Source: Abditibacteriota bacterium (lineage in GTDB: Bacteria; Armatimonadota; UBA5829). Taken from it: a DNA stretch of 64,000 nt. Location of the stretch: the NCBI GenBank assembly GCA_017552965.1, contig JAFZNQ010000117.1:1319-65318 (forward strand), in the 5' to 3' direction. The notes below the pieces were generated by a model, which had not been told where the DNA came from, searched no databases, and worked only from the letters and a program-made list of their open reading frames with translations. The translations under genes were made by a program, and so were the position numbers. Every line of letters begins with the position of its first letter. The first letter of the stretch is position 1. Below, piece by piece: positions 771 to 9,700 of this stretch.

Positions 771-1529
771 TTATCCTCCTTGATCCTGCAGTCTGTCTAT
801 CACCTGCTGCAGCTCTTCCGCATGCCTGAGATATGCTTCTGTTTCTTCCTTCAGCTCTGCGGTCTTGTTTTCCGTTTCCTCCGGATCCTCGATGATATAG
901 CGCAGGATCCAGGGCTCCGTGGTCATGATCTCTTCTATCTCTGCCCTCAGCTCGATGATCCTGCCCTTTATGTCGGGGATGTCGATCTGCAGTCCGTCCC
1001 TGCCCATATCCGTCAACAGCCTGTTTGCCAGTATCTCCAGCTCACTGAGCAGCTTGGCGTCATTGGCGTAGTAGGCCTCTGTTATGCTCAGCCACAGCTC
1101 CTTCAGGGGTCCGTCGGATCCTGTCTCGCGGCATATATCGGGATGGAGACGCTTTGCCAAGCGCCGGTAGATCTGCTTGCTCTTTTCCACGTCCTCCGCG
1201 GAGGACCGCTCCGCTTTTGCGGCCCGGGCTGCATCTTCCTGCATCTGCAGCAGTCTGTCCCGGTACACCTCCATCTCCTTTTGGATCCGGGCCAGCATTT
1301 CCTTCCTGTCCGGCTGCTCGCCCCGGTTGAGGGCTGCCTGGATAAAGGCGATGATCTTTTTGCACCTGATACATTCCACCTTTGCCCGGTAGTTCTTGAC
1401 CATCAGATCGCCGAACAGCTGCAGATACTCGATGCGTATGGAGACCGCTTCCTTTTTCAGAGCGTCTCTTTTGACCAGCAGGTTCGTGTATTCGAGAGTG
1501 TCCGGATCGGAGGCTTTGACTATGTTCAT
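771..1529 (-). CDS. J-domain (DnaJ-like, HPD motif) coiled-coil protein; start taken at the internal ATG (MNIVKASDPD)
   Basis: QIYRRLAKRLHPDICRETGSDGPLKELWLSITEAYYANDAKL is a helix II-HPD-helix III J-domain signature; the rest is charged and coiled-coil-like; start ATG overlaps the upstream gene's stop (ATGA); the track ORF starts 99 nt further upstream at a non-ATG codon. Confidence 0.5.
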   Translation of the reverse strand: MNIVKASDPDTLEYTNLLVKRDALKKEAVSIRIEYLQLFGDLMVKNYRAKVECIRCKKIIAFIQAALNRGEQPDRKEMLARIQKEMEVYRDRLLQMQEDAARAAKAERSSAEDVEKSKQIYRRLAKRLHPDICRETGSDGPLKELWLSITEAYYANDAKLLSELEILANRLLTDMGRDGLQIDIPDIKGRIIELRAEIEEIMTTEPWILRYIIEDPEETENKTAELKEETEAYLRHAEELQQVIDRLQDQGG

Positions 1530-2389
1530 TGGTCTATCCCGTAAACTGTGATATATTCGTAAAGGGCGGTGATGGGCTCGCCCTCTATCTCTGCCTTGGC
1601 GAAAAAGTCGTCTATGGTGCGGAACCACCTGTCTCCGAGGCGTATCCCCAGTCCGTCGCCGTCGGGGACTGCTTCCGCTTCATAGTCCTTACCGCCATAG
1701 CGGAGCAGCGCCTTTGCGGGGGAGGCGAACACGTGATACAGGTCGTATATGTCCGCGTTCCGGGGATCAAAGGGGCGGAGGGCGTAGATGCCCTCTATCA
1801 GCCATTTCATGATGGTCAGGTTGCCGAAAAAAGGGTTGCGGGCTATCCTCTCCGCCAGGACTCCCCTGGCCGTATCCCGGAGCTCCAGGGCTTCGGCGGT
1901 CCTGCCCTCTTTGTCGTATATCCCGGCCAGACGGGAATAGATCTCCGGCAGGTGTTCGCCGGGCTTTTTGTAAAGGTCTTTGATGATGGACGCGTATTTG
2001 TCATAGTCCCGCTCTACCCAGTAGCCGTTTTTGTACATATCGGCCACCTTGTAGGCCGCCGCAGTGTCACCCATTTTGGCCGCCCTGTCAAAGTAATAAA
2101 AGGCCTTTTCGTAGTTCTTTTCCCCGGTCCTGCCGTAGTACCAGATATAGCCCAGATCCGAGATGGCGTATATGTTGTCGTATTCGGCCGCCTGCTCGTA
2201 ATACTTCAGGGCCAGGTCAAACAACCGCTGTCTGTAGTAGTGGGCTCCCAGCTCCACCATGCAGTTGGGATTCTCGGTCTTCTCTATAAGGAAGCCCATA
2301 GCTTCGGTGAACATAAAGGAGTCTTCTTCCGAGGGATTGGAGAGATGATAGAATCGTCTGCGTATTTTTTCGGCTTCGCGAATGGTCAT
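1526..2389 (-). CDS. Sel1/TPR-like repeat protein (287 aa), first gene of the operon
   Basis: Repeated A-x-x-Y-x-x-A-A-x-x-G motifs (KAFYYFDRAAKMGDTAAAYKVADMYKNG etc.) typical of Sel1 repeats; RBS AAGGAGG 6 nt before the ATG. Confidence 0.55.
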   Translation of the reverse strand: MTIREAEKIRRRFYHLSNPSEEDSFMFTEAMGFLIEKTENPNCMVELGAHYYRQRLFDLALKYYEQAAEYDNIYAISDLGYIWYYGRTGEKNYEKAFYYFDRAAKMGDTAAAYKVADMYKNGYWVERDYDKYASIIKDLYKKPGEHLPEIYSRLAGIYDKEGRTAEALELRDTARGVLAERIARNPFFGNLTIMKWLIEGIYALRPFDPRNADIYDLYHVFASPAKALLRYGGKDYEAEAVPDGDGLGIRLGDRWFRTIDDFFAKAEIEGEPITALYEYITVYGIDQ

Positions 2390-2446: not shown

Positions 2447-2478
2447 AAAAAAGCTCCTTTGCCGGACGGCAAAGGAGC
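2447..2478 (-). terminator. rho-independent terminator directly 3' of tRNA-fMet (minus strand)
   Basis: Minus-strand gctcctttgcc-gtcc-ggcaaaggagc hairpin followed by TTTTTT. Confidence 0.6.
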
Positions 2479-2486
2479 GTGTGTTC

Positions 2487-2562
<76 letters not shown>

Positions 2563-2573
2563 TTGACATTTAT

Positions 2574-2602
2574 ATTATACCACAGAAGGCGCGGTTTGTA
2601 AA
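2574..2602 (-). promoter_or_regulatory. sigma-70 type promoter for tRNA-fMet
   Basis: Minus strand TTTACA-17 nt-TATAAT (with TGg extension) ending about 11 nt before the tRNA 5' end. Confidence 0.55.
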
Positions 2603-2637
2603 GAGGCCCGGGGCAAATAGCGAAAAAAGAGGACCGT

Positions 2638-2667
2638 TTGACACCCCGCCCGCTTTTGGGGTATAAT
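2638..2667 (+). promoter_or_regulatory. consensus sigma-70 promoter for the MtrA/TS-like fusion gene
   Basis: TTGACA-17 nt-TATAAT about 40 nt upstream of RBS AAGGAGAG and ATG 2708. Confidence 0.6.
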
Positions 2668-2707
2668 ATATATACAAACTAATATATTTGACTGCAAGGA
2701 GAGTATT

Positions 2708-5065
2708 ATGGACTTTGAGCCTTTGTTCTACGCAGACAAGCTGCGCCTCGTCAACCCTTCCGGATGCATAGGGGTAGTGTGTCTGTGGACCAAACAGGAA
2801 CATGCTCTGAAAAAGCTGGCCGAGGCGGGGATCGATCTGGGGCCCTCGTCAAAGGTGGCCCTGATAGGCAACCTGTACGGCAACGGCATTTCCGAGCTGG
2901 CTGCCAATCTGATGTATAACCCCCAGATACAGGGGTTGCTCATATGCGGCTCCAACATGTCCGGCTCTGCCGAGGACCTGATAGCCCTGTACACAGACGG
3001 CATACGCGAGACCGAGCAGCTGGGCTGCAGGGTCAGGGTCATAGCCGGCAGGGACCGGGTGGTGAACAACGCCCTGGATATGTCCCTCGCAAGTCAAAAG
3101 CCGGTCCTCTGCTACGCCGGAGACTTCTCTTCTCCCGACACTCTGACAAAAGCCGCGGATTTCGTCAACGGCTTCACACCCTCTCCCGTGACCTCCGAAC
3201 GTATAGCCATCACCATGGAAAAGCCTGCGGTGACAGTGTGTCCCACGGAGCCCCGCAGCCTGGTCATCACCCGGGACGACCCTCTGAGCGCCTGGCGGGA
3301 GCTGGTGTTCTGCCTCAACAGGTTCGGGGTCCCCGTGATGCTCAGAAAAGGGGAGCGGCGGGAGCTGCAAAACGTGAAGGTGGTCATCCGGGACTTTGAC
3401 GTCGATGAGGAAGAGCTGAAGAAATACGGCTTCAGGCTCTCCGAGCTGGAGGACTACCGCCAAAAGCTGCTCTCCGGCTATCTGCCTCCGGACCAGGAAT
3501 ACACCTACGGCAACCGCATCAGGGAATACTTCGGCTTTGACTTTCTGGAGAACACCATAGACAAGCTGTCGGCCTATGTGAATGACCGGGACTGCTATCT
3601 GTCCCTGTGGGACCCCAAGCGCGACACCTACGGCAAAGACGCTCCCTGCATGGTGAGCCTCTTTTTCAGAGTCTTTCAGGGCGAGCTGACCCTCACTGCG
3701 TTTTTCCGCACCCACAACGGGATGGACGCTTGGCTGAAAAACGCCTGGGGCATCAGGGGCCTGCAGGAATACGTGGGGGGCAGGCTGGGAATGAAATGCG
3801 GCCCCCTGACCGTCATCAGCCACAGCATCAGCATCGACACCACCAGAGGCGATTTTGCCCAGAGGGTGGCTGCCGGCAAGCAGTTTGCCCTGCACACCGA
3901 CTACAACGGTCAGGTGGAGATAGGCATAGAGGATGGCGAGATAGTGGTCACCCACGCCCGCCCGGACGGGACTCCCATCAACGTTTACCGGGGGACCGTG
4001 ACCGAGCGGCTCCAGCATGAGCTGTATCGGGACCGGGTCCTGTCGGACATAGAGCACGCCATCTTCGTGGGCAGAGAGCTGGAAAAGGCCAAGGCGGTCC
4101 TGGATGACCGCATCTCCGGGGAGGAGCGGCCCGCGGCGGCTCCCCGGCGGACCCGGCAGCTCTCCACCGGCTGTCCCACGGAGCCCCGGAGCCTGGTTAT
4201 CACCCGGGACGACCCTCTGAGCGCCTGGAAGGAGCTGGTGTTCTGCCTCAACAGGTTCGGAGTCCCCGTCATGCTCAGAAAAGGGGAGCGGAGTGAGCTG
4301 CAGAACGTAAAGGTGGTCATACGGGATTTTGAGATCAGCGAGGACAAGCTTGCCGGCTATGGCTTCAGCATGTCCGAGCTGGAGGACTACCGCAGAGAGC
4401 TCTTCCGGGAGGAGCTTCCGGAGGGAGCCGAATACACCTGCGGCAACCGCATCAGGGAATACTACGGCTTTGACTTTTTGCAGTGTGTCACAGACAAGCT
4501 GTCCGTGTATTCCAACGACCGGGACTGCTATCTGTCCCTGTGGGACCCCAAAAAGGACACCTTCGGCAGGGACGTCCCCAGTCTGGTGAGCCTGTTTTTC
4601 CGGGTCTTTCAGGGCGAGCTGACCCTGACTGCCTCATACCGCAACCACAACGTGACGGACGCCTGGCTGAAAAACGTGTACGGCCTCAGAGGCCTGCAGG
4701 AATACGTGGGAAAAAAGCTGGAGCTTGAGTGCGGCCCTATGACCGTGATCAGCATGTCTGTCAGCATCGACGCCAAAAGGAGCGACTTTGCCCGGAGAGT
4801 GGCCGGAGAAAAGGGCTTTGCCCTGAATATGGACTACAACGGCCAGGTGCTCATCATGCCGGTGGACGGTGAGATAGTGGTCACCCACACCCGCCCGGAC
4901 GGGACTCCCATCAGGGTGTACAAGGGGACGGACACGGCTATGCTCCAGCATGAGCTGGCCCGGGACAACGTCCTGTCGGACATCAATCACGCCATCTACA
5001 TAGGCAGAGAGCTGGAAAGAGCCCGGGCGGCCCTGGAAAAGGGCGCGGAATACGTCCAGGCATAG
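2708..5065 (+). CDS. fusion protein: N-terminal MtrA-like (tetrahydromethanopterin S-methyltransferase subunit A-like, corrinoid-binding fold) domain followed by two tandem thymidylate-synthase-like domains (785 aa)
   Basis: aa 15-120 (NLYGNGISELAANLMYNPQIQGLLICGSNMSGSAEDLIALYTDGI) aligns with archaeal MtrA (NLGIEKV..NPNIR.LL..GSEV.GH..G.SL.AL..NGI). Each repeat carries TS motifs YGNRIREYFG..D.L.NTIDKL....DRDCYLSLWDPK.D....APCMVSLFFRVFQGELTLTAFFRTHNGMD...N (catalytic Cys, Arg, Asn conserved). Confidence 0.55.
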   Translation: MDFEPLFYADKLRLVNPSGCIGVVCLWTKQEHALKKLAEAGIDLGPSSKVALIGNLYGNGISELAANLMYNPQIQGLLICGSNMSGSAEDLIALYTDGIRETEQLGCRVRVIAGRDRVVNNALDMSLASQKPVLCYAGDFSSPDTLTKAADFVNGFTPSPVTSERIAITMEKPAVTVCPTEPRSLVITRDDPLSAWRELVFCLNRFGVPVMLRKGERRELQNVKVVIRDFDVDEEELKKYGFRLSELEDYRQKLLSGYLPPDQEYTYGNRIREYFGFDFLENTIDKLSAYVNDRDCYLSLWDPKRDTYGKDAPCMVSLFFRVFQGELTLTAFFRTHNGMDAWLKNAWGIRGLQEYVGGRLGMKCGPLTVISHSISIDTTRGDFAQRVAAGKQFALHTDYNGQVEIGIEDGEIVVTHARPDGTPINVYRGTVTERLQHELYRDRVLSDIEHAIFVGRELEKAKAVLDDRISGEERPAAAPRRTRQLSTGCPTEPRSLVITRDDPLSAWKELVFCLNRFGVPVMLRKGERSELQNVKVVIRDFEISEDKLAGYGFSMSELEDYRRELFREELPEGAEYTCGNRIREYYGFDFLQCVTDKLSVYSNDRDCYLSLWDPKKDTFGRDVPSLVSLFFRVFQGELTLTASYRNHNVTDAWLKNVYGLRGLQEYVGKKLELECGPMTVISMSVSIDAKRSDFARRVAGEKGFALNMDYNGQVLIMPVDGEIVVTHTRPDGTPIRVYKGTDTAMLQHELARDNVLSDINHAIYIGRELERARAALEKGAEYVQA
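3239..5062 (+). repeat. tandem duplication, two units of about 933 bp each encoding one TS-like domain; about 90% nt identity over the first 160 nt compared
   Basis: 3239-3400 vs 4172-4335 are nearly identical at nucleotide level (tgtcccacggagccccg.agcctggt.atcacccgggacgaccctctgagcgcctgg...). Confidence 0.7.
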
Positions 5066-5069
5066 AGAG

Positions 5070-5097
5070 GCAGCCGGCAGGGCCGGCTGCTTTTTTT
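5070..5097. terminator. bidirectional rho-independent terminator
   Basis: gcagccggc-agg-gccggctgc followed by TTTTTTT, between convergent genes. Confidence 0.7.
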
Positions 5098-5105
5098 CTG
5101 TGACG

Positions 5106-5714
5106 TCAGAGTTCTATGGCCACGGCCCGCACCGGCGAGCTGTCGCAGGGGATGCTCAGGGGAAAGGCCGCAAAGACAAAGCGCGCGCCTGCCAGCTCCC
5201 GGGGGATGACCAGCCCCTCCACCAGAGGTATATCTTTTTCCTGCAGGGCGTTGTGACAGCGAAAGCCCGGCAGGGAGTCCACCGAGGGGACGTCCGTGGC
5301 CACCAGTCTGAAGCCCCGGTCCAGTATATACCTGCACAGCGCGTCGGAAAAGCCCGGAAAATCCAGCAAAAAGCTCTTGCCGTCCCGGGTCTTCCTCTGC
5401 CAGAAGGTGGCCACCACCAGTATCCCGCAGCCCTCCGCCTCGCAGTCCGGCGCCTGTATCAGTCCGTCCCTTATCTCCGGAGCCACGCACAGGGCTTCTC
5501 CATAGAAGGTGGAAAGGGGGAAGGAATCGATCTCCCTGCCGCCGGGAAAGGCGTGCCGGGGAGCGTCTATGTGGGTGCCTATATGGCTGCCCGTCTGCAG
5601 ATAGGTGGTCTGGGGGCAGGCCTGGGTCACGGTCATGGAGAGGGGATCGTCGCCGGGATAGGTCAGGGTGTCCGGCCCCAGAGGCTGCGAAAGATCGGTG
5701 ATTTTCATATGCAC
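5106..5714 (-). CDS. putative cyclase family protein (arylformamidase/kynurenine formamidase-like)
   Basis: GTHIDAPRHAF motif and overall length (202 aa) typical of the putative cyclase family. Confidence 0.65.
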   Translation of the reverse strand: MHMKITDLSQPLGPDTLTYPGDDPLSMTVTQACPQTTYLQTGSHIGTHIDAPRHAFPGGREIDSFPLSTFYGEALCVAPEIRDGLIQAPDCEAEGCGILVVATFWQRKTRDGKSFLLDFPGFSDALCRYILDRGFRLVATDVPSVDSLPGFRCHNALQEKDIPLVEGLVIPRELAGARFVFAAFPLSIPCDSSPVRAVAIEL

Positions 5715-5822
5715 GTCCTGTCAAAAGATATTCACCTCTATTATACCACAGCTTTCCGGGCGGGAGCTCCGGCCGGGGCCAAAACTATTTTGACGCCGCC
5801 TCAAAAAAAAATAGTATTACGG

Positions 5823-5851
5823 TTGAAATAGACGCGTGCGGGTGGTATAAT
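5823..5851 (+). promoter_or_regulatory. sigma-70 promoter upstream of rpsA
   Basis: TTGAAA-17 nt-TATAAT; roughly 85-nt leader. Confidence 0.5.
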
Positions 5852-5935
5852 AATAATGTGTGTGTTCGCAGTACAACGGAATACATTATCAGATAGTTTG
5901 GGGCGATAAGGTCCGATTGAGGAGTTGTAGGTTAA

Positions 5936-7180
5936 ATGCCTGTAGTAGAAAACGATATCAACATGGAAGACGTAATGGCTACTCTTCCTACCGAAGACAA
6001 GCAGTTAAGAAAGGGCGAGCTCGTAGAGGGCGAGGTGGTCCAGGTCAACAAGGACGAGATCCTGATCAACCTGACCAGCTATTCTCTCAAGTCCGAAGCG
6101 AGAATGCCTCTGGATCAGCTGACATCCGACAGCACTGTCACGAGCTGCGAGGAGCTGGTCAAGGTCGGCGACATCATCAAGGCCAGAGTCATAGTGCCTT
6201 CCGGCAAGAACGGCATCATTCTGTCCAAGAAGAGCGCGGACTACGATCTTCGCTGGGATGAGATCAAGGATATATACGAAGAGGGCAGGATAGTCAAGGC
6301 TGTCGCCAAGGAAGCCGTCAAGGGCGGTCTGGTGGTGGACATACTGGGCTACAGCGCCTTTTGTCCCGCATCTCAGGTGGCCGGGAAGTATGAAAACTTT
6401 GCCAAGCATGCCGGAGAGGACATGGAGTTCAAGGTCATAGAGATCGACAAGGCAAAGAGAAGGATCATCCTGTCCAACCGCAAGGTGGTCAACGAGCGCA
6501 GACAGGCTGCCAAGCGGGCCTTCTGGGACAACATCCAGGTGGGCGAAGAGCGCGAAGGCACTGTCAAGAGCGTGCTTCCCTACGGCGTGTTTGTGGATAT
6601 CGGCGGCTTTGAAGGCATGCTCCATATCAGCGAAATGAGCTGGAACCGCATCTCCGATCCTTCCAAGATGTTCAAGGTGGGAGACAAGGTCAGAGTCATA
6701 GTGCTCAGCTTTGACGAGACAAAGCAGAGAGTGTCTCTGGGCCACAAGCAGCTGCTGCCCGATCCCTGGCGCTTCGTCAAGGAAAACATCGTGGAGGGCG
6801 CCGAGTTCACCGGCAAGATCACCAGAATAGTGGCCAAGGCCGCTTTTATGGATATGGGCAACGGTTTCGAGGGCCTTATCCCTATCTCCGAGATGGCCAA
6901 CGAGCGCATCGAGACCCCCGACAAGGTATTGTCCGAGGGTGAGGAAAAGACCGTGCTGGTCAAGCAGGTCATCGACAAGGACCGCAAGGTGATACTCTCC
7001 ATCAAGGCCCTTCTGCCGGCTCCCGAGCGTCCTCAGAGAAGGCACGCCGCCGTCAGCGACAACGATGATTATGACAAGGACTTCGGATACGCCGGCCACG
7101 AAGAGGGCGGAGCATCCACCAGCATCGGAGATCTCTATGGAGATCTGCTCAAATCTACAGGCGAAGACGAAGAAGGATAA
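5936..7180 (+). CDS. rpsA: 30S ribosomal protein S1 (four S1 domains, Firmicutes-type short form) with acidic C-terminal tail
   Basis: Four repeated S1 OB-fold motifs (GE.V.G.V..V...G.FVD.GG..G..HISE...); RBS GGAG upstream. Confidence 0.8.
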   Translation: MPVVENDINMEDVMATLPTEDKQLRKGELVEGEVVQVNKDEILINLTSYSLKSEARMPLDQLTSDSTVTSCEELVKVGDIIKARVIVPSGKNGIILSKKSADYDLRWDEIKDIYEEGRIVKAVAKEAVKGGLVVDILGYSAFCPASQVAGKYENFAKHAGEDMEFKVIEIDKAKRRIILSNRKVVNERRQAAKRAFWDNIQVGEEREGTVKSVLPYGVFVDIGGFEGMLHISEMSWNRISDPSKMFKVGDKVRVIVLSFDETKQRVSLGHKQLLPDPWRFVKENIVEGAEFTGKITRIVAKAAFMDMGNGFEGLIPISEMANERIETPDKVLSEGEEKTVLVKQVIDKDRKVILSIKALLPAPERPQRRHAAVSDNDDYDKDFGYAGHEEGGASTSIGDLYGDLLKSTGEDEEG

Positions 7181-7269
7181 TCCATACGTCAAACAGGAGT
7201 GCTGTGTTATCACGGCACTCTTTTATTAAATCACGACACAGCCGAGCCCGGCAACAAGGACAGACACAA

Positions 7270-8652
7270 ATGAAAGGCATTTATTCGAAAGCGGCCATTA
7301 CCCGGAAGCAACAGTATCCCGCAGGCGACGTGCGCAATTATGCTCACCTGGTGCGAAAAGAGACCTGGCTGGAAAAGGAATTCCGCACCGGCTACTACGT
7401 GGACCGGGTCCAATTTACCGAGGGTGAGATATGGACCGACGCCATACAGGCGGCTCTCGACGAAAACAAGCGCGTTTACGTCCCCTATTTCCCCAACAGA
7501 CTGTACATAGACAAGACCCTTTATATCGGGTCCGGCACCACCCTTGAGGTGTGCGAGGGCACCGTGATCTCCCTGAAGCCGGACAGCAACTGCTGTATGC
7601 TGACCAACAAGAACTTCAAGGTGAGCCGCAGCGTCTTCGAGTTTGACTGCCCCGATACGGATATCTGCATCACAGGGGGGACCTGGTCCCTGACCAACAA
7701 TGGCAGCTACGGCGGCAACGGCAACGAATCCGGCAAAGTCCGGGACAGCGCCGGGGTGGAGCACAACGCCTTCTCGGTGATGAGCTTTACCAACGTCAAG
7801 GGGCTGCGGATAAGCAACCTCACCTTTTACGACATTACCCCCTTTGCCCTTTACGTCAGCGGCATAGAAGACTTTGATATAGAGAATCTGAAGTTTGACA
7901 AGTGCTACCGGGACGGCGTGCACGTCTGCGGCCCCGCCTCCGGGGGCAGGATACGCAACCTGACGGGCGTCACAGGAGACGACTTTGTGGCCCTCAACGC
8001 CTACGACGACTTTGGCTGCGCCCTGAGCCTGGGCAAGATAGACCACGTGCTGGTGGAAAACATAGCCTCCACTCCCGGATGGATGTGGAGCGAGAACAGG
8101 CTCCTGGCGGGAATATTCATTGCGGAGGACGGCAGGGAGATAGACTGCAGCGTGGAAGACTGCACCTTCCGCAACTGCCGGGGCTTCCACACCTACAAGG
8201 GATATCTGCAGGCCAATCTGGTGCCCGCTCCAGTTGACCGGCCGGACCGGTCCGGGCATATGGACAACCTGACCTTTGAAAACATATTCGTGGACTATAT
8301 ACAGCCCTCTGACTACTATACGGTCAAGCGCTCCGCCTTTGAAATGGGCACCAGCTGCAACAACTTTACGTTTCGCAATATATACTTCAGCTTCCCTCTG
8401 GGGGACCCCGAATACGGCGACTGGAGCTGCGTGACCTTTGGCCCCTCCTTCGCTGCTTTTCTGGATTCCAGAGGCATTATGCCCAGCAGGAATATCAGGT
8501 TTGAAAACGTGTTCCACCGGGTCGGCGGACGATACGTGGAGGCCGATCCTTCCCTTTGCGCCAGAGTGGTCACTGCCGAAGAGGACGGCGAGGTCATAGG
8601 CAAGGGCACTGCAACAGAAATCTATTATAACGAGGAAGATAAAAATGAGTAA
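7270..8652 (+). CDS. right-handed parallel beta-helix repeat protein (pectin-lyase fold, GH28-like), no signal peptide
   Basis: Repeated ...GL.I.N....D.....V....D..IEN..F motifs and a Gly/Asn-rich turn (NNGSYGGNGNESG); start moved to the internal ATG (MKGIYSK); stop overlaps the downstream gene's start. Confidence 0.45.
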   Translation: MKGIYSKAAITRKQQYPAGDVRNYAHLVRKETWLEKEFRTGYYVDRVQFTEGEIWTDAIQAALDENKRVYVPYFPNRLYIDKTLYIGSGTTLEVCEGTVISLKPDSNCCMLTNKNFKVSRSVFEFDCPDTDICITGGTWSLTNNGSYGGNGNESGKVRDSAGVEHNAFSVMSFTNVKGLRISNLTFYDITPFALYVSGIEDFDIENLKFDKCYRDGVHVCGPASGGRIRNLTGVTGDDFVALNAYDDFGCALSLGKIDHVLVENIASTPGWMWSENRLLAGIFIAEDGREIDCSVEDCTFRNCRGFHTYKGYLQANLVPAPVDRPDRSGHMDNLTFENIFVDYIQPSDYYTVKRSAFEMGTSCNNFTFRNIYFSFPLGDPEYGDWSCVTFGPSFAAFLDSRGIMPSRNIRFENVFHRVGGRYVEADPSLCARVVTAEEDGEVIGKGTATEIYYNEEDKNE

Positions 8653-9700
8653 AAAATTCAGGATAGGCTTGGTGGGAACAGGCTCCATCTGCAATTACGC
8701 CCACATACCCGCTCTGAAAAACATGCCCGAGATCGAGATAGCCGCTATCTGCGACATCGATCCCAAGGCGCTGGACAACACCAAGAAGAACCTGGGCAAC
8801 GACACTATACCCGCGTTCCTCAGCCACAAGGACATGCTGGGCGCCCGTCTGGATCTGGATGCGGTGCACATCTGCACCCCCAACTACGCCCACTCGCCCA
8901 TAGCGGTGGACTTTCTGGGAGCGGATATACACGTATTCTGCGAGAAGCCCATTTCCATGACCCGGGCCGAGGCTCAGAAGATGCTGGACGCCGAGAAGAA
9001 GTCCAAGGCCGTGCTGTCCGTGGGACACTGCTGGCGCTACAACAACGAAATGGTGGCTCTGAAGAAGTTCGTGGACGCAGGCCGGCTGGGTGAGATATAC
9101 TACGCCAAGGCCATATCCAACCGCCGCAGAGGCATCCCCGGCTGGGGTGTGTTCTGCGACCTGGAGAAGCAGGGCGGCGGCTGTATGATAGACTGCGGCT
9201 GCCACGCTCTGGACACTGCTCTCTGGCTCACCGGCAACCCCAAGCCCGTGTCCGTCAGCGGATGCAGCTACTCCAAGCTGGGCAACAATAAGGATATCGC
9301 CGATATGGGAGGCGACTGGGCCTGGGACAGGGACACCTTCAACATAGAGGACTTCTGCACCGGTCTGGTGAAGTTTGAGAACGGTATGACCATGTATATC
9401 GAATCCAGCTTTGCCGCCCACATAGAGAAGGATTACTTCGGCGTGCAGCTCATAGGCGACAAGGGCGGAGCCACCACGGCCCCCCTGAAGATATACACCG
9501 ACGAGAACAAGGTGATGCTCAACATCACTCCCGCCCATCTTCAGCCCTCTTCGCCCCACGCAGACGAGATCAAGGACTTTTACACCGCTCTGGCTGAAGG
9601 CGGGGAAATACCCATCAAAGCCTGGCAGGCCTACGACGTGATCAGCATCATAGACGCTATATACGAGTCCGGCCGCACCGGCGAGACCATCAGGCTCTGA
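8645..9700 (+). CDS. Gfo/Idh/MocA family NAD(P)-dependent oxidoreductase
   Basis: N-terminal Rossmann IGLVGTGSI..YAHIPAL and central EKP motif; translationally coupled to the beta-helix gene (ATGAGTAA overlap). Confidence 0.75.
   Translation: MSKKFRIGLVGTGSICNYAHIPALKNMPEIEIAAICDIDPKALDNTKKNLGNDTIPAFLSHKDMLGARLDLDAVHICTPNYAHSPIAVDFLGADIHVFCEKPISMTRAEAQKMLDAEKKSKAVLSVGHCWRYNNEMVALKKFVDAGRLGEIYYAKAISNRRRGIPGWGVFCDLEKQGGGCMIDCGCHALDTALWLTGNPKPVSVSGCSYSKLGNNKDIADMGGDWAWDRDTFNIEDFCTGLVKFENGMTMYIESSFAAHIEKDYFGVQLIGDKGGATTAPLKIYTDENKVMLNITPAHLQPSSPHADEIKDFYTALAEGGEIPIKAWQAYDVISIIDAIYESGRTGETIRL

Follow-up and report, generated by a model that had tools for sequence, protein, structure and literature searches.

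A tandemly doubled thymidylate-synthase-fold protein of Abditibacteriota with one predicted active site per chain

Thymidylate synthesis, an essential process and a classic target of drugs, is carried out by two known enzyme classes, ThyA and ThyX. Classical ThyA is an obligate homodimer that shows half-the-sites reactivity, each active site borrowing Arg126/Arg127 from the partner subunit. In the thymidylate synthase (TS) of Escherichia coli, R126/R127 of one protomer bind the phosphate of deoxyuridine monophosphate (dUMP) in the site of the opposite protomer (PMC5981203), and dUMP binding is normal in engineered TS heterodimers that have a single functional site (Maley 1995; Falk 2016, reviewed in PMC5981203). 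For the archaeal enzymes both biochemistry and cofactor use are poorly known (PMC9012536, PMC9931769). Here we describe a gene at 2708..5065 (+) of a 64,000-nucleotide stretch from an Abditibacteriota bacterium (GCA_017552965.1, contig JAFZNQ010000117.1, positions 1,319 to 65,318; hereafter the window), whose product carries two TS-fold modules in one chain. Judged from its sequence, the protein is an internally duplicated, single-active-site form of a catalogued but unstudied branch of the ThyA superfamily. We think it somewhat probable, from residue patterns and by analogy with ThyA, that it methylates dUMP as a single-chain pseudo-heterodimer with one active site per chain.

The gene is one continuous, uninterrupted open reading frame (ORF) of 785 aa plus stop, the single polypeptide that a first-pass annotation of the window had proposed. 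Scans with the Pfam and NCBIfam libraries of the whole protein and of five pieces of it delimit six segments, all on the + strand: an MtrA-fold (Rossmann-like) N-terminal domain (aa 1-175, 2708..3232; PF04208 18.7 bits, cut-off 25), TS-fold module 1 (aa 176-392, 3233..3883; TIGR03283 109 bits, PF00303 23.2), a first PterinBD-DUF4346 domain (aa 393-470, 3884..4117; PF14251 43.9 bits, cut-off 29.6), an inter-module linker with a predicted local distance difference test score (pLDDT) of ~60 (aa 471-484, 4118..4159), TS-fold module 2 (aa 485-700, 4160..4807; TIGR03283 100.7 bits, PF00303 12.3) and a second PterinBD-DUF4346 domain (aa 701-785, 4808..5062; PF14251 57.7 bits, cut-off 29.6) that retains all family invariants (D, G, Y, H, A, G). 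Each repeated unit therefore consists of a short TS fold of ~215 aa and a PterinBD-DUF4346 domain of ~85 aa, and the two TS+DUF4346 units are 73% identical over 291 residues. The two TS-fold domains of roughly 310 aa initially described are thus real as tandem TS-core repeats of ~300 aa, recovered by both TIGR03283 and Foldseek, but not as single domains, their PterinBD-DUF4346 part having gone unnoticed in the first pass.

TIGR03283, the methanogen-type TS, gives either TS copy its highest family score, over nearly the full profile (positions 9-193 of 201); the whole protein reaches 202 bits and so passes the cut-off of 174.55 because the scores of the two copies add up, each copy alone falling below it. 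On PF00303 (cut-off 24.3) the whole protein scores 29.6 bits and distant members of the family 47-70. No match to the ThyX domain PF02511 or the dihydrofolate reductase (DHFR) domain PF00186 was found in the Pfam scan of the whole protein and its pieces at E<=1. For the full-length chain, AlphaFold2 (AF2) run on an alignment of 66 sequences gave a model with a mean pLDDT of 87 and a predicted template modelling score (pTM) of 0.85, the latter suggesting a fixed inter-domain arrangement. Against the PDB, Foldseek returned 396 matches to this model at E<=1e-3, the top 50 of which are all TS-fold enzymes (4.5e-10 for the best, ~6e-8 at rank 50), led by the phage deoxycytidine monophosphate (dCMP) hydroxylase AfhB (9iqu, target template modelling (TM) score 0.77), the flavin/dCMP monooxygenase 9iqc, the CMP hydroxymethylase MilA and many ThyA structures. 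Searched with the family profile, the PDB yields ThyA chains at E 2e-5, and neither profile nor structure searches placed the C-terminal domains in any fold other than that of TS.

Catalytic residues were mapped by alignment to what we take to be the E. coli ThyA reference sequence, in which the textbook residues all fall at their correct numbers, and the mapping was cross-checked with a 66-sequence profile against the TS chains of the PDB. Module 1 carries Tyr267, Arg294, Cys314, Arg334, Asn345 and His372 as the equivalents of ThyA Tyr94, Arg126, the nucleophile Cys146, Arg166, Asn177 and His207, with Asp295 at the position of Arg127 and Asn337 at that of Asp169. Position 295 excepted, these residues are invariant or nearly so across the family, and Cys314 and Tyr267 are invariant in 66/66 aligned members. 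The corresponding series in module 2 reads Cys578, Arg605, Ser625, Arg645, Asn656 and Met683, with Asp606 and Asn648 at the Arg127 and Asp169 positions. Around the nucleophile the motif is DAPCMVSL in module 1 versus DVPSLVSL in module 2, where in addition the 'YG' of the YGxR block reads CG and the invariant His has become Met; these module 2 substitutions are common to all three sampled doubled orthologues. The dUMP-phosphate arginines (equivalents of Arg166 and Arg126) and the base-specifying equivalent of Asn177, a position occupied by Asp in cytosine-specific relatives of TS, are present in both modules; no equivalent of Arg21 was identified. By these residues module 1 is catalytically complete and module 2 catalytically degenerate. 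The first-pass annotation had credited each copy with a TS catalytic core (Cys in APCMVSL, conserved Arg/Asn/His and a YGxRxxxFG block), a description that fits copy 1 throughout, whereas copy 2 keeps the Arg and Asn but has Ser, Cys and Met in place of Cys146, Tyr94 and His207, and CG in place of YG. As for the folate- and dUMP-phosphate-binding residues that it had singled out for inspection, both copies have kept the Arg126 and Arg166 equivalents and replaced those of Arg127 and Asp169.

Doubled orthologues of 786 aa are found in Abditibacteriota metagenome-assembled genomes (MAGs) at 88-89% identity. The one from a yak-rumen MAG (locus L008), syntenic with the window over 2447-9687, is 89% identical to the window gene in amino acids and 82% in nucleotides. 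When the ratio of nonsynonymous to synonymous substitution (omega) was computed by region between these two genes, it was 0.16 for the N-terminal domain, 0.145 for TS module 1, 0.14 for the first DUF4346 domain, 0.147 for TS module 2 and 0.26 for the second DUF4346 domain, versus 0.67 for the linker, which is only 64% identical to that of L008. By this measure constraint is relaxed in the linker, and the degenerate second TS module is under the same purifying selection as the first. Synonymous divergence (dS) is 0.46 between the modules compared with 0.43 between the orthologues. An assembly artefact or a pair of adjacent genes was considered and rejected, given the continuous frame, modules only 78-79% identical in nucleotides and the same layout in an independent MAG.

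The doubling is not confined to this clade. An exhaustive HMMER pass over 1.84 billion representatives (172 matches at E<=1e-30, 659 at E<=1e-10) brought up three further doubled proteins, P0122 (797 aa), P0159 (683 aa, truncated) and P0221 (837 aa). In neighbour-joining trees of the modules from the four doubled lineages, the two halves of each protein pair with one another, with bootstrap values of 100 for the window clade (in which the orthologous module-1 and module-2 pairs are nested), 80 for P0221, 77 for P0122 and 50 for P0159, and a grouping of all second modules together has a bootstrap of 0. Since halves pair within each protein and second modules never group, the trees indicate that tandem duplication took place at least three times independently. 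The nucleophilic Cys has been lost from the second module in all four lineages (Ser, Arg, Gly, Ser) and the Tyr motif disrupted; the Arg126 equivalent is kept in the second module of all four, and module 1 keeps both Cys and Tyr. In P0159 module 1 additionally lacks its Arg126 equivalent, a reciprocal loss of the kind to be expected were catalysis confined to the one site that the pocket of module 1 forms with the Arg of module 2. At least three lineages would thus have fused two subunits and then dropped the second nucleophile, retaining the trans-acting Arg.

These observations can be accommodated in the following scheme. The TS fold would bind dUMP, Cys314 would attack C6 and a one-carbon unit would be moved to C5, yielding deoxythymidine monophosphate (dTMP); dUMP is the substrate we infer, because the Asn177 equivalent is retained and because of the gene context described below. 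Single-module members of the family would homodimerise as ThyA does. With the tandem duplication of the TS+DUF4346 module in the rumen Abditibacteriota lineage, modules 1 and 2 would, by analogy with ThyA, pack as an intramolecular pseudo-dimer in which module 1 gives the nucleophile together with the catalytic Tyr and His, and module 2 gives the trans Arg (Arg605) and an interface. Each chain is predicted to end up with one active site and no more, and with a single MtrA-fold domain to serve it. As for the accessory domains, our guess is that they bind or position a pterin-type one-carbon cofactor and replace the folate-closing C-terminal third of ThyA, because DUF4346 stands in place of that tail, because it co-occurs with MtrA-like and pterin-binding proteins in the NCBIfam models NF002128 and TIGR00284, and because the most conserved loop of the N-terminal domain lies at a cofactor contact of MtrA.

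Single-module relatives, with the layout MtrA-fold domain, short archaeal-like TS fold and DUF4346, are widespread. A word-indexed search found 492 relatives, and among the 120 of these that were listed all but two are single-module proteins of ~480 aa, named automatically as 'thymidylate synthase' or 'DUF4346 domain-containing protein'. When genomes representing individual species were scanned, the single-module form turned up in at least 211 species of bacteria, including Armatimonadota, Abditibacteriota, Bacillota, Thermodesulfobacteriota, Nitrospirota, Acidobacteriota, relatives of Thiomargarita and Magnetococcales. Single-module members score 110-131 bits on TIGR03283, all below its cut-off, so that by profile score the family is a distinct subfamily nearest to the methanogen TS and not a member of the TIGR03283 equivalog. 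The first-pass annotation knew the architecture from no characterised enzyme, and our literature searches likewise yielded nothing on these domains in combination (DUF4346 and PF14251, searched in full text, and MJ0757 gave no papers); as an architecture, though, the single-module form is already widely catalogued, and only the doubling is rare. Searches on dCMP hydroxylase with thymidylate synthase and flavin found no literature, and those on ParB-CE, on thymidylate synthase with MtrA and on AfhB brought up only unrelated papers. One family gene, in Candidatus Magnetobacterium cryptolimnobacter (L066:10001-13205), is broken after ~133 codons by an insert of ~1.4 kb holding two small HicB-antitoxin-like ORFs, which may be genuine or may reflect a chimeric assembly. 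Relatives occur in only 3 of 2.9 million viral contigs (L090, L091 and L092, IMG/VR contigs of 81-287 kb classed as viral, which may be true phage genomes or misclassified cellular DNA, at 27-42% identity), and a phage or defence origin was rejected on these counts and on the PADLOC results given below.

A role in dTMP synthesis finds its chief support in the gene context. The search for orthologous fusions and their neighbours that the first-pass annotation had recommended recovered a same-strand cluster: when ORFs around related loci were clustered and gene order was mapped in 78 loci plus the window, same-strand neighbours were present at 55 of the 78. Three partners recur, always on the strand of the TS fusion, namely a ParB-CE (PF24392) protein of ~205 aa at 44 loci, a HAD hydrolase at 36 and a dCMP-deaminase-like protein at 31, most often in the orders deaminase-HAD-ParB-CE-TS (17 loci), deaminase-TS-HAD (11) and TS-HAD-ParB-CE (9). 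The deaminase matches ComEB at 108 bits and phrog_174 at E 1e-41, and the HAD protein has weak similarity to YjjG-type pyrimidine nucleotidases. In P0186 (758 aa), a single-module member, a HAD domain is fused C-terminally (aa ~530-758), a gene fusion that ties the TS protein to its HAD neighbour in the manner of a Rosetta stone. On a Bacillota-like contig, the gene for P0221, which was doubled independently (L089:8001-10514), lies 70 bp downstream of a thymidylate kinase gene (7212-7931), in a housekeeping block with era, recO and gyrB. P0004, the closest single-module relative of the window protein, has the full cluster.

ParB-CE is the most constant of the neighbours (for example L001:9400-10011, L087:7396-8001 and L088:3435-4058) and its listed relatives share 63-96% identity, a much higher conservation than that of the TS fusion itself. 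It has no sequence relative in the PDB and no NCBIfam, PADLOC or PHROG match, and all of its 766 homologues are named 'hypothetical protein'. ParB-CE thus stands out as an uncharacterised protein, strongly conserved and linked to the metabolism of pyrimidine deoxynucleotides. Among the TS fusion and its cluster partners, PADLOC defence models matched none except the deaminase. The 64-kb window, a scope narrower than the genome, lacks homologues of E. coli ThyA and FolA as well as of the deaminase, HAD and ParB-CE.

The N-terminal domain was proposed in the first-pass annotation to be MtrA-like and of corrinoid type. The relation to MtrA is upheld: an AF2 model of aa 1-175 alone (pLDDT 93.5) has only five PDB matches at E<=1e-3, all of them MtrA (5l8x, 5laa; E 2e-6 to 2e-5, TM 0.59-0.68), with the next match at E 5e-3, making MtrA its only significant structural relative. 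At the sequence level the match is weak, PF04208 giving the isolated domain 18.7 bits and the full chain 15.0; the single sequence matches 5l8x at E 0.0017, and a 7-sequence family profile matches the cobalamin-bound 5laa at E 1.7e-4. MtrA binds cobalamin through His84 (the cobalt ligand, in the beta3-alpha3 loop), Glu54 (its hydrogen-bond partner) and a conserved meander, GAIPF/Y-xEN, and these are its key and most conserved features (PMC4915002). In the 5laa alignment, however, His84 stands opposite the family-invariant Ser87 and the meander opposite GTSRVIDD (family consensus; G-R-D-R-V-V-N in the window protein), and the Glu54 position is Tyr/Phe in 238 of 241 family members (Tyr57 in the window protein). 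The two-residue loop insertion in which His84 sits is missing from the family, and only 6 of the 241 have any His near that position. Across these 241 members, in the profile alignment, the cobalt ligand, Glu54 and the meander are absent. The most conserved loop of the domain, GNLYGNG, lies at the site of the cobalamin-contacting beta2-alpha2 loop of MtrA. Alignment and model together portray the domain as an MtrA-fold homologue that retains nothing of what defines corrinoid binding; the corrinoid-type part of the proposal is thus unsupported.

In the window clade the N-terminal domain departs from the near-invariant R66, E100, D120 and F128. A second yak-rumen Abditibacteriota MAG holds a single-module copy (L073:10001-11419) whose TS catalytic residues are intact and whose accessory signatures are degenerate (ANLSKNG for GNLYGNG, and the His-Ala-x-Tyr motif gone from DUF4346). 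With both its N-domain and its DUF4346 motifs degenerate, this copy suggests that in rumen Abditibacteriota the accessory domains are under relaxed constraint.

Several points weigh against reading the protein as a dUMP-methylating enzyme. The pterin-contacting Asp169 is replaced by Asn337, part of a family-invariant His-Asn; the C-terminal ~55 residues of ThyA (E. coli ~210-264), which close over folate, have no counterpart, DUF4346 standing in their place; each TS copy falls below the curated cut-offs of both PF00303 (24.3) and TIGR03283 (174.55); the window gene and its orthologue in L008 no longer lie beside genes for the deaminase, HAD and ParB-CE; and enzymes that hydroxylate dCMP with flavin or hydroxymethylate CMP rank among the best fold matches, so that the chemistry at C5 could differ. 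Because Asp169 is replaced and the folate-closing terminus is missing, the one-carbon donor may be something other than methylene-tetrahydrofolate. The same two features, along with the leading position of AfhB, 9iqc and MilA in the Foldseek results and the presence of a conserved, uncharacterised ParB-CE protein and a phosphatase in the cluster, would also fit an enzyme that hydroxymethylates or hydroxylates dUMP/UMP (or dCMP) at C5, its product destined for a modified nucleotide, a nucleoside natural product or DNA hypermodification and further processed by HAD and ParB-CE. We consider this rather improbable, for the invariant Asn177 equivalent points to uracil and not cytosine, the nearest sequence family is the methanogen TS and PHROG matches are all to 'thymidylate synthase', the contexts are of a housekeeping kind (thymidylate kinase, gyrB, dCMP deaminase), defence models match only the deaminase, viral relatives are as rare as noted above, and the family is spread broadly over Armatimonadota and many other phyla under purifying selection.

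Methylation of the pyrimidine from methyl-cobalamin held by the MtrA-like domain, as the first-pass annotation suggested, would draw on the MtrA fold, the placement of GNLYGNG and the company that DUF4346 keeps in NF002128 and TIGR00284, yet it appears very unlikely in view of a family of 241 members without His84, Glu54, the meander or even the loop insertion that holds the ligand, a PF04208 score under threshold, and a conserved neighbourhood devoid of corrinoid-handling genes. Least probable of all, to our mind, is a functionless module 2, left over from a recent duplication and now decaying: it does lack the Cys, Tyr and His equivalents, and the dS values make the duplication fairly recent, but its omega is practically that of module 1 with relaxation confined to the linker, the frame is intact in four sampled sequences, Arg605, Arg645, Asn656 and all DUF4346 invariants are retained, and the same outcome is seen in independent and much older lineages whose modules are 39-53% identical. 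A dUMP-methylating pseudo-heterodimer with one active site per chain is hence the reading we prefer. A bolder extension, which we regard as tentative and on balance unlikely, is that MtrA-fold+TS+DUF4346 constitutes a third self-contained dTMP synthase system, the sole one in several hundred bacterial species, with the accessory domains (and perhaps ParB-CE) holding or regenerating the cofactor. Were this true, the enzyme would need neither the methylene-tetrahydrofolate/DHFR cycling of ThyA nor the flavin chemistry of ThyX and would use a pterin or another one-carbon or redox cofactor, and the repeatedly evolved single chains with one dead site would be natural evidence that one site per dimer suffices.

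A sigma-70-type promoter-like site, TTGACA-18 nt-TATAAT (2638..2667, +), matches the consensus hexamers at 12/12 positions, a consensus match only; the first-pass annotation was right about the perfect hexamers and one nucleotide short on the spacer, which it gave as 17. A ribosome-binding site, AGGAGAG (2696..2702, +), read in the sequence, lies ~6 nt 5' of the ATG at 2708, and a terminator-like hairpin with a weak, 5-bp stem followed by a T run lies at 5076..5101 (+). The Rfam scan found no riboswitch or other Rfam element in the leader. The adjacent tRNA-fMet already noted in the first pass is a divergent tRNA-Met(CAT) gene at 2487..2562 (-; ARAGORN, Rfam tRNA 60 bits) with initiator features (3 G-C pairs closing the anticodon stem and a 1-72 mismatch), and is not part of the enzyme. 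Next downstream is a convergent cyclase-family gene (5106-5714, -), and the other neighbours, a Sel1/TPR protein, a HIRAN protein and a ribosomal-protein-S1-like gene, are functionally unrelated to the enzyme. Because of these unrelated neighbours and its own promoter-like, ribosome-binding and terminator-like signals, the gene looks monocistronic and transcriptionally isolated.

The tRNA gene has a near-consensus promoter-like site of its own (TTTACA-17-TATAAT, 2602->2574, -; extended -10 with TG), divergent from that of the enzyme and ~36 nt from it, and a strong 11-bp bidirectional hairpin on its 3' side (2453-2478). From the tRNA through ~9687 the window is collinear with L008 at 82% nucleotide identity; the block upstream of the tRNA (369-2378; HIRAN, unknown, Sel1/TPR) is inverted there (L008:4392-6423). 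Two nearby ORFs have no Pfam match at E<=0.001, one of 285 aa at 771-1628 (-), with a J-domain-like 'KRLHPD' and an overlap of ~100 nt with the Sel1/TPR ORF, and one of 482 aa at 7204-8652 (+).

What the locus adds is a populous branch of the ThyA superfamily, marked by two further domains and a neighbourhood of four genes, all conserved, whose doubled forms amount to a natural experiment on half-the-sites reactivity, making a decades-old mechanistic proposal testable with natural proteins. Set beside ThyA itself (PF00303; structures from E. coli, L. casei, T4 and varicella-zoster virus), each TS module has the same fold, module 1 has the equivalents of Tyr94, Arg126, Cys146, Arg166, Asn177 and His207, and the predicted dimer-type logic is alike, one subunit donating an Arg to its partner's site. 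Unlike ThyA, the TS core here is ~215 aa long without the C-terminal ~55 residues, has Asn for Asp169 and Asp for Arg127, and occurs twice per chain (the second time without a nucleophile), fused to an MtrA-fold domain and DUF4346. The methanogen-type TS (TIGR03283) has a similarly short core, but it is a stand-alone archaeal protein of ~200 aa, compared with a 785-aa multidomain bacterial protein here, and the present family is always fused to the two extra domains and scores 101-131 bits per copy against a cut-off of 174.55. With MtrA (5l8x, 5laa) the N-terminal domain shares the Rossmann-like fold and the core motif 'NP(N/Q)I(R)...CG(S)'; the window protein differs in lacking His84, Glu54, the meander and the membrane anchor, and has no mtr genes nearby. 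The bifunctional DHFR-TS of protozoa and plants likewise has an N-terminal alpha/beta domain fused to TS, but the one here is of MtrA fold and has no match to PF00186. Perhaps the closest parallel is with the engineered one-site ThyA heterodimers, in which one subunit supplies the pocket and the other Arg126/127, a division of labour mirrored in the reciprocal loss pattern of P0159; the doubled proteins differ from these in being natural, covalently joined in one chain and repeatedly arisen by tandem duplication.

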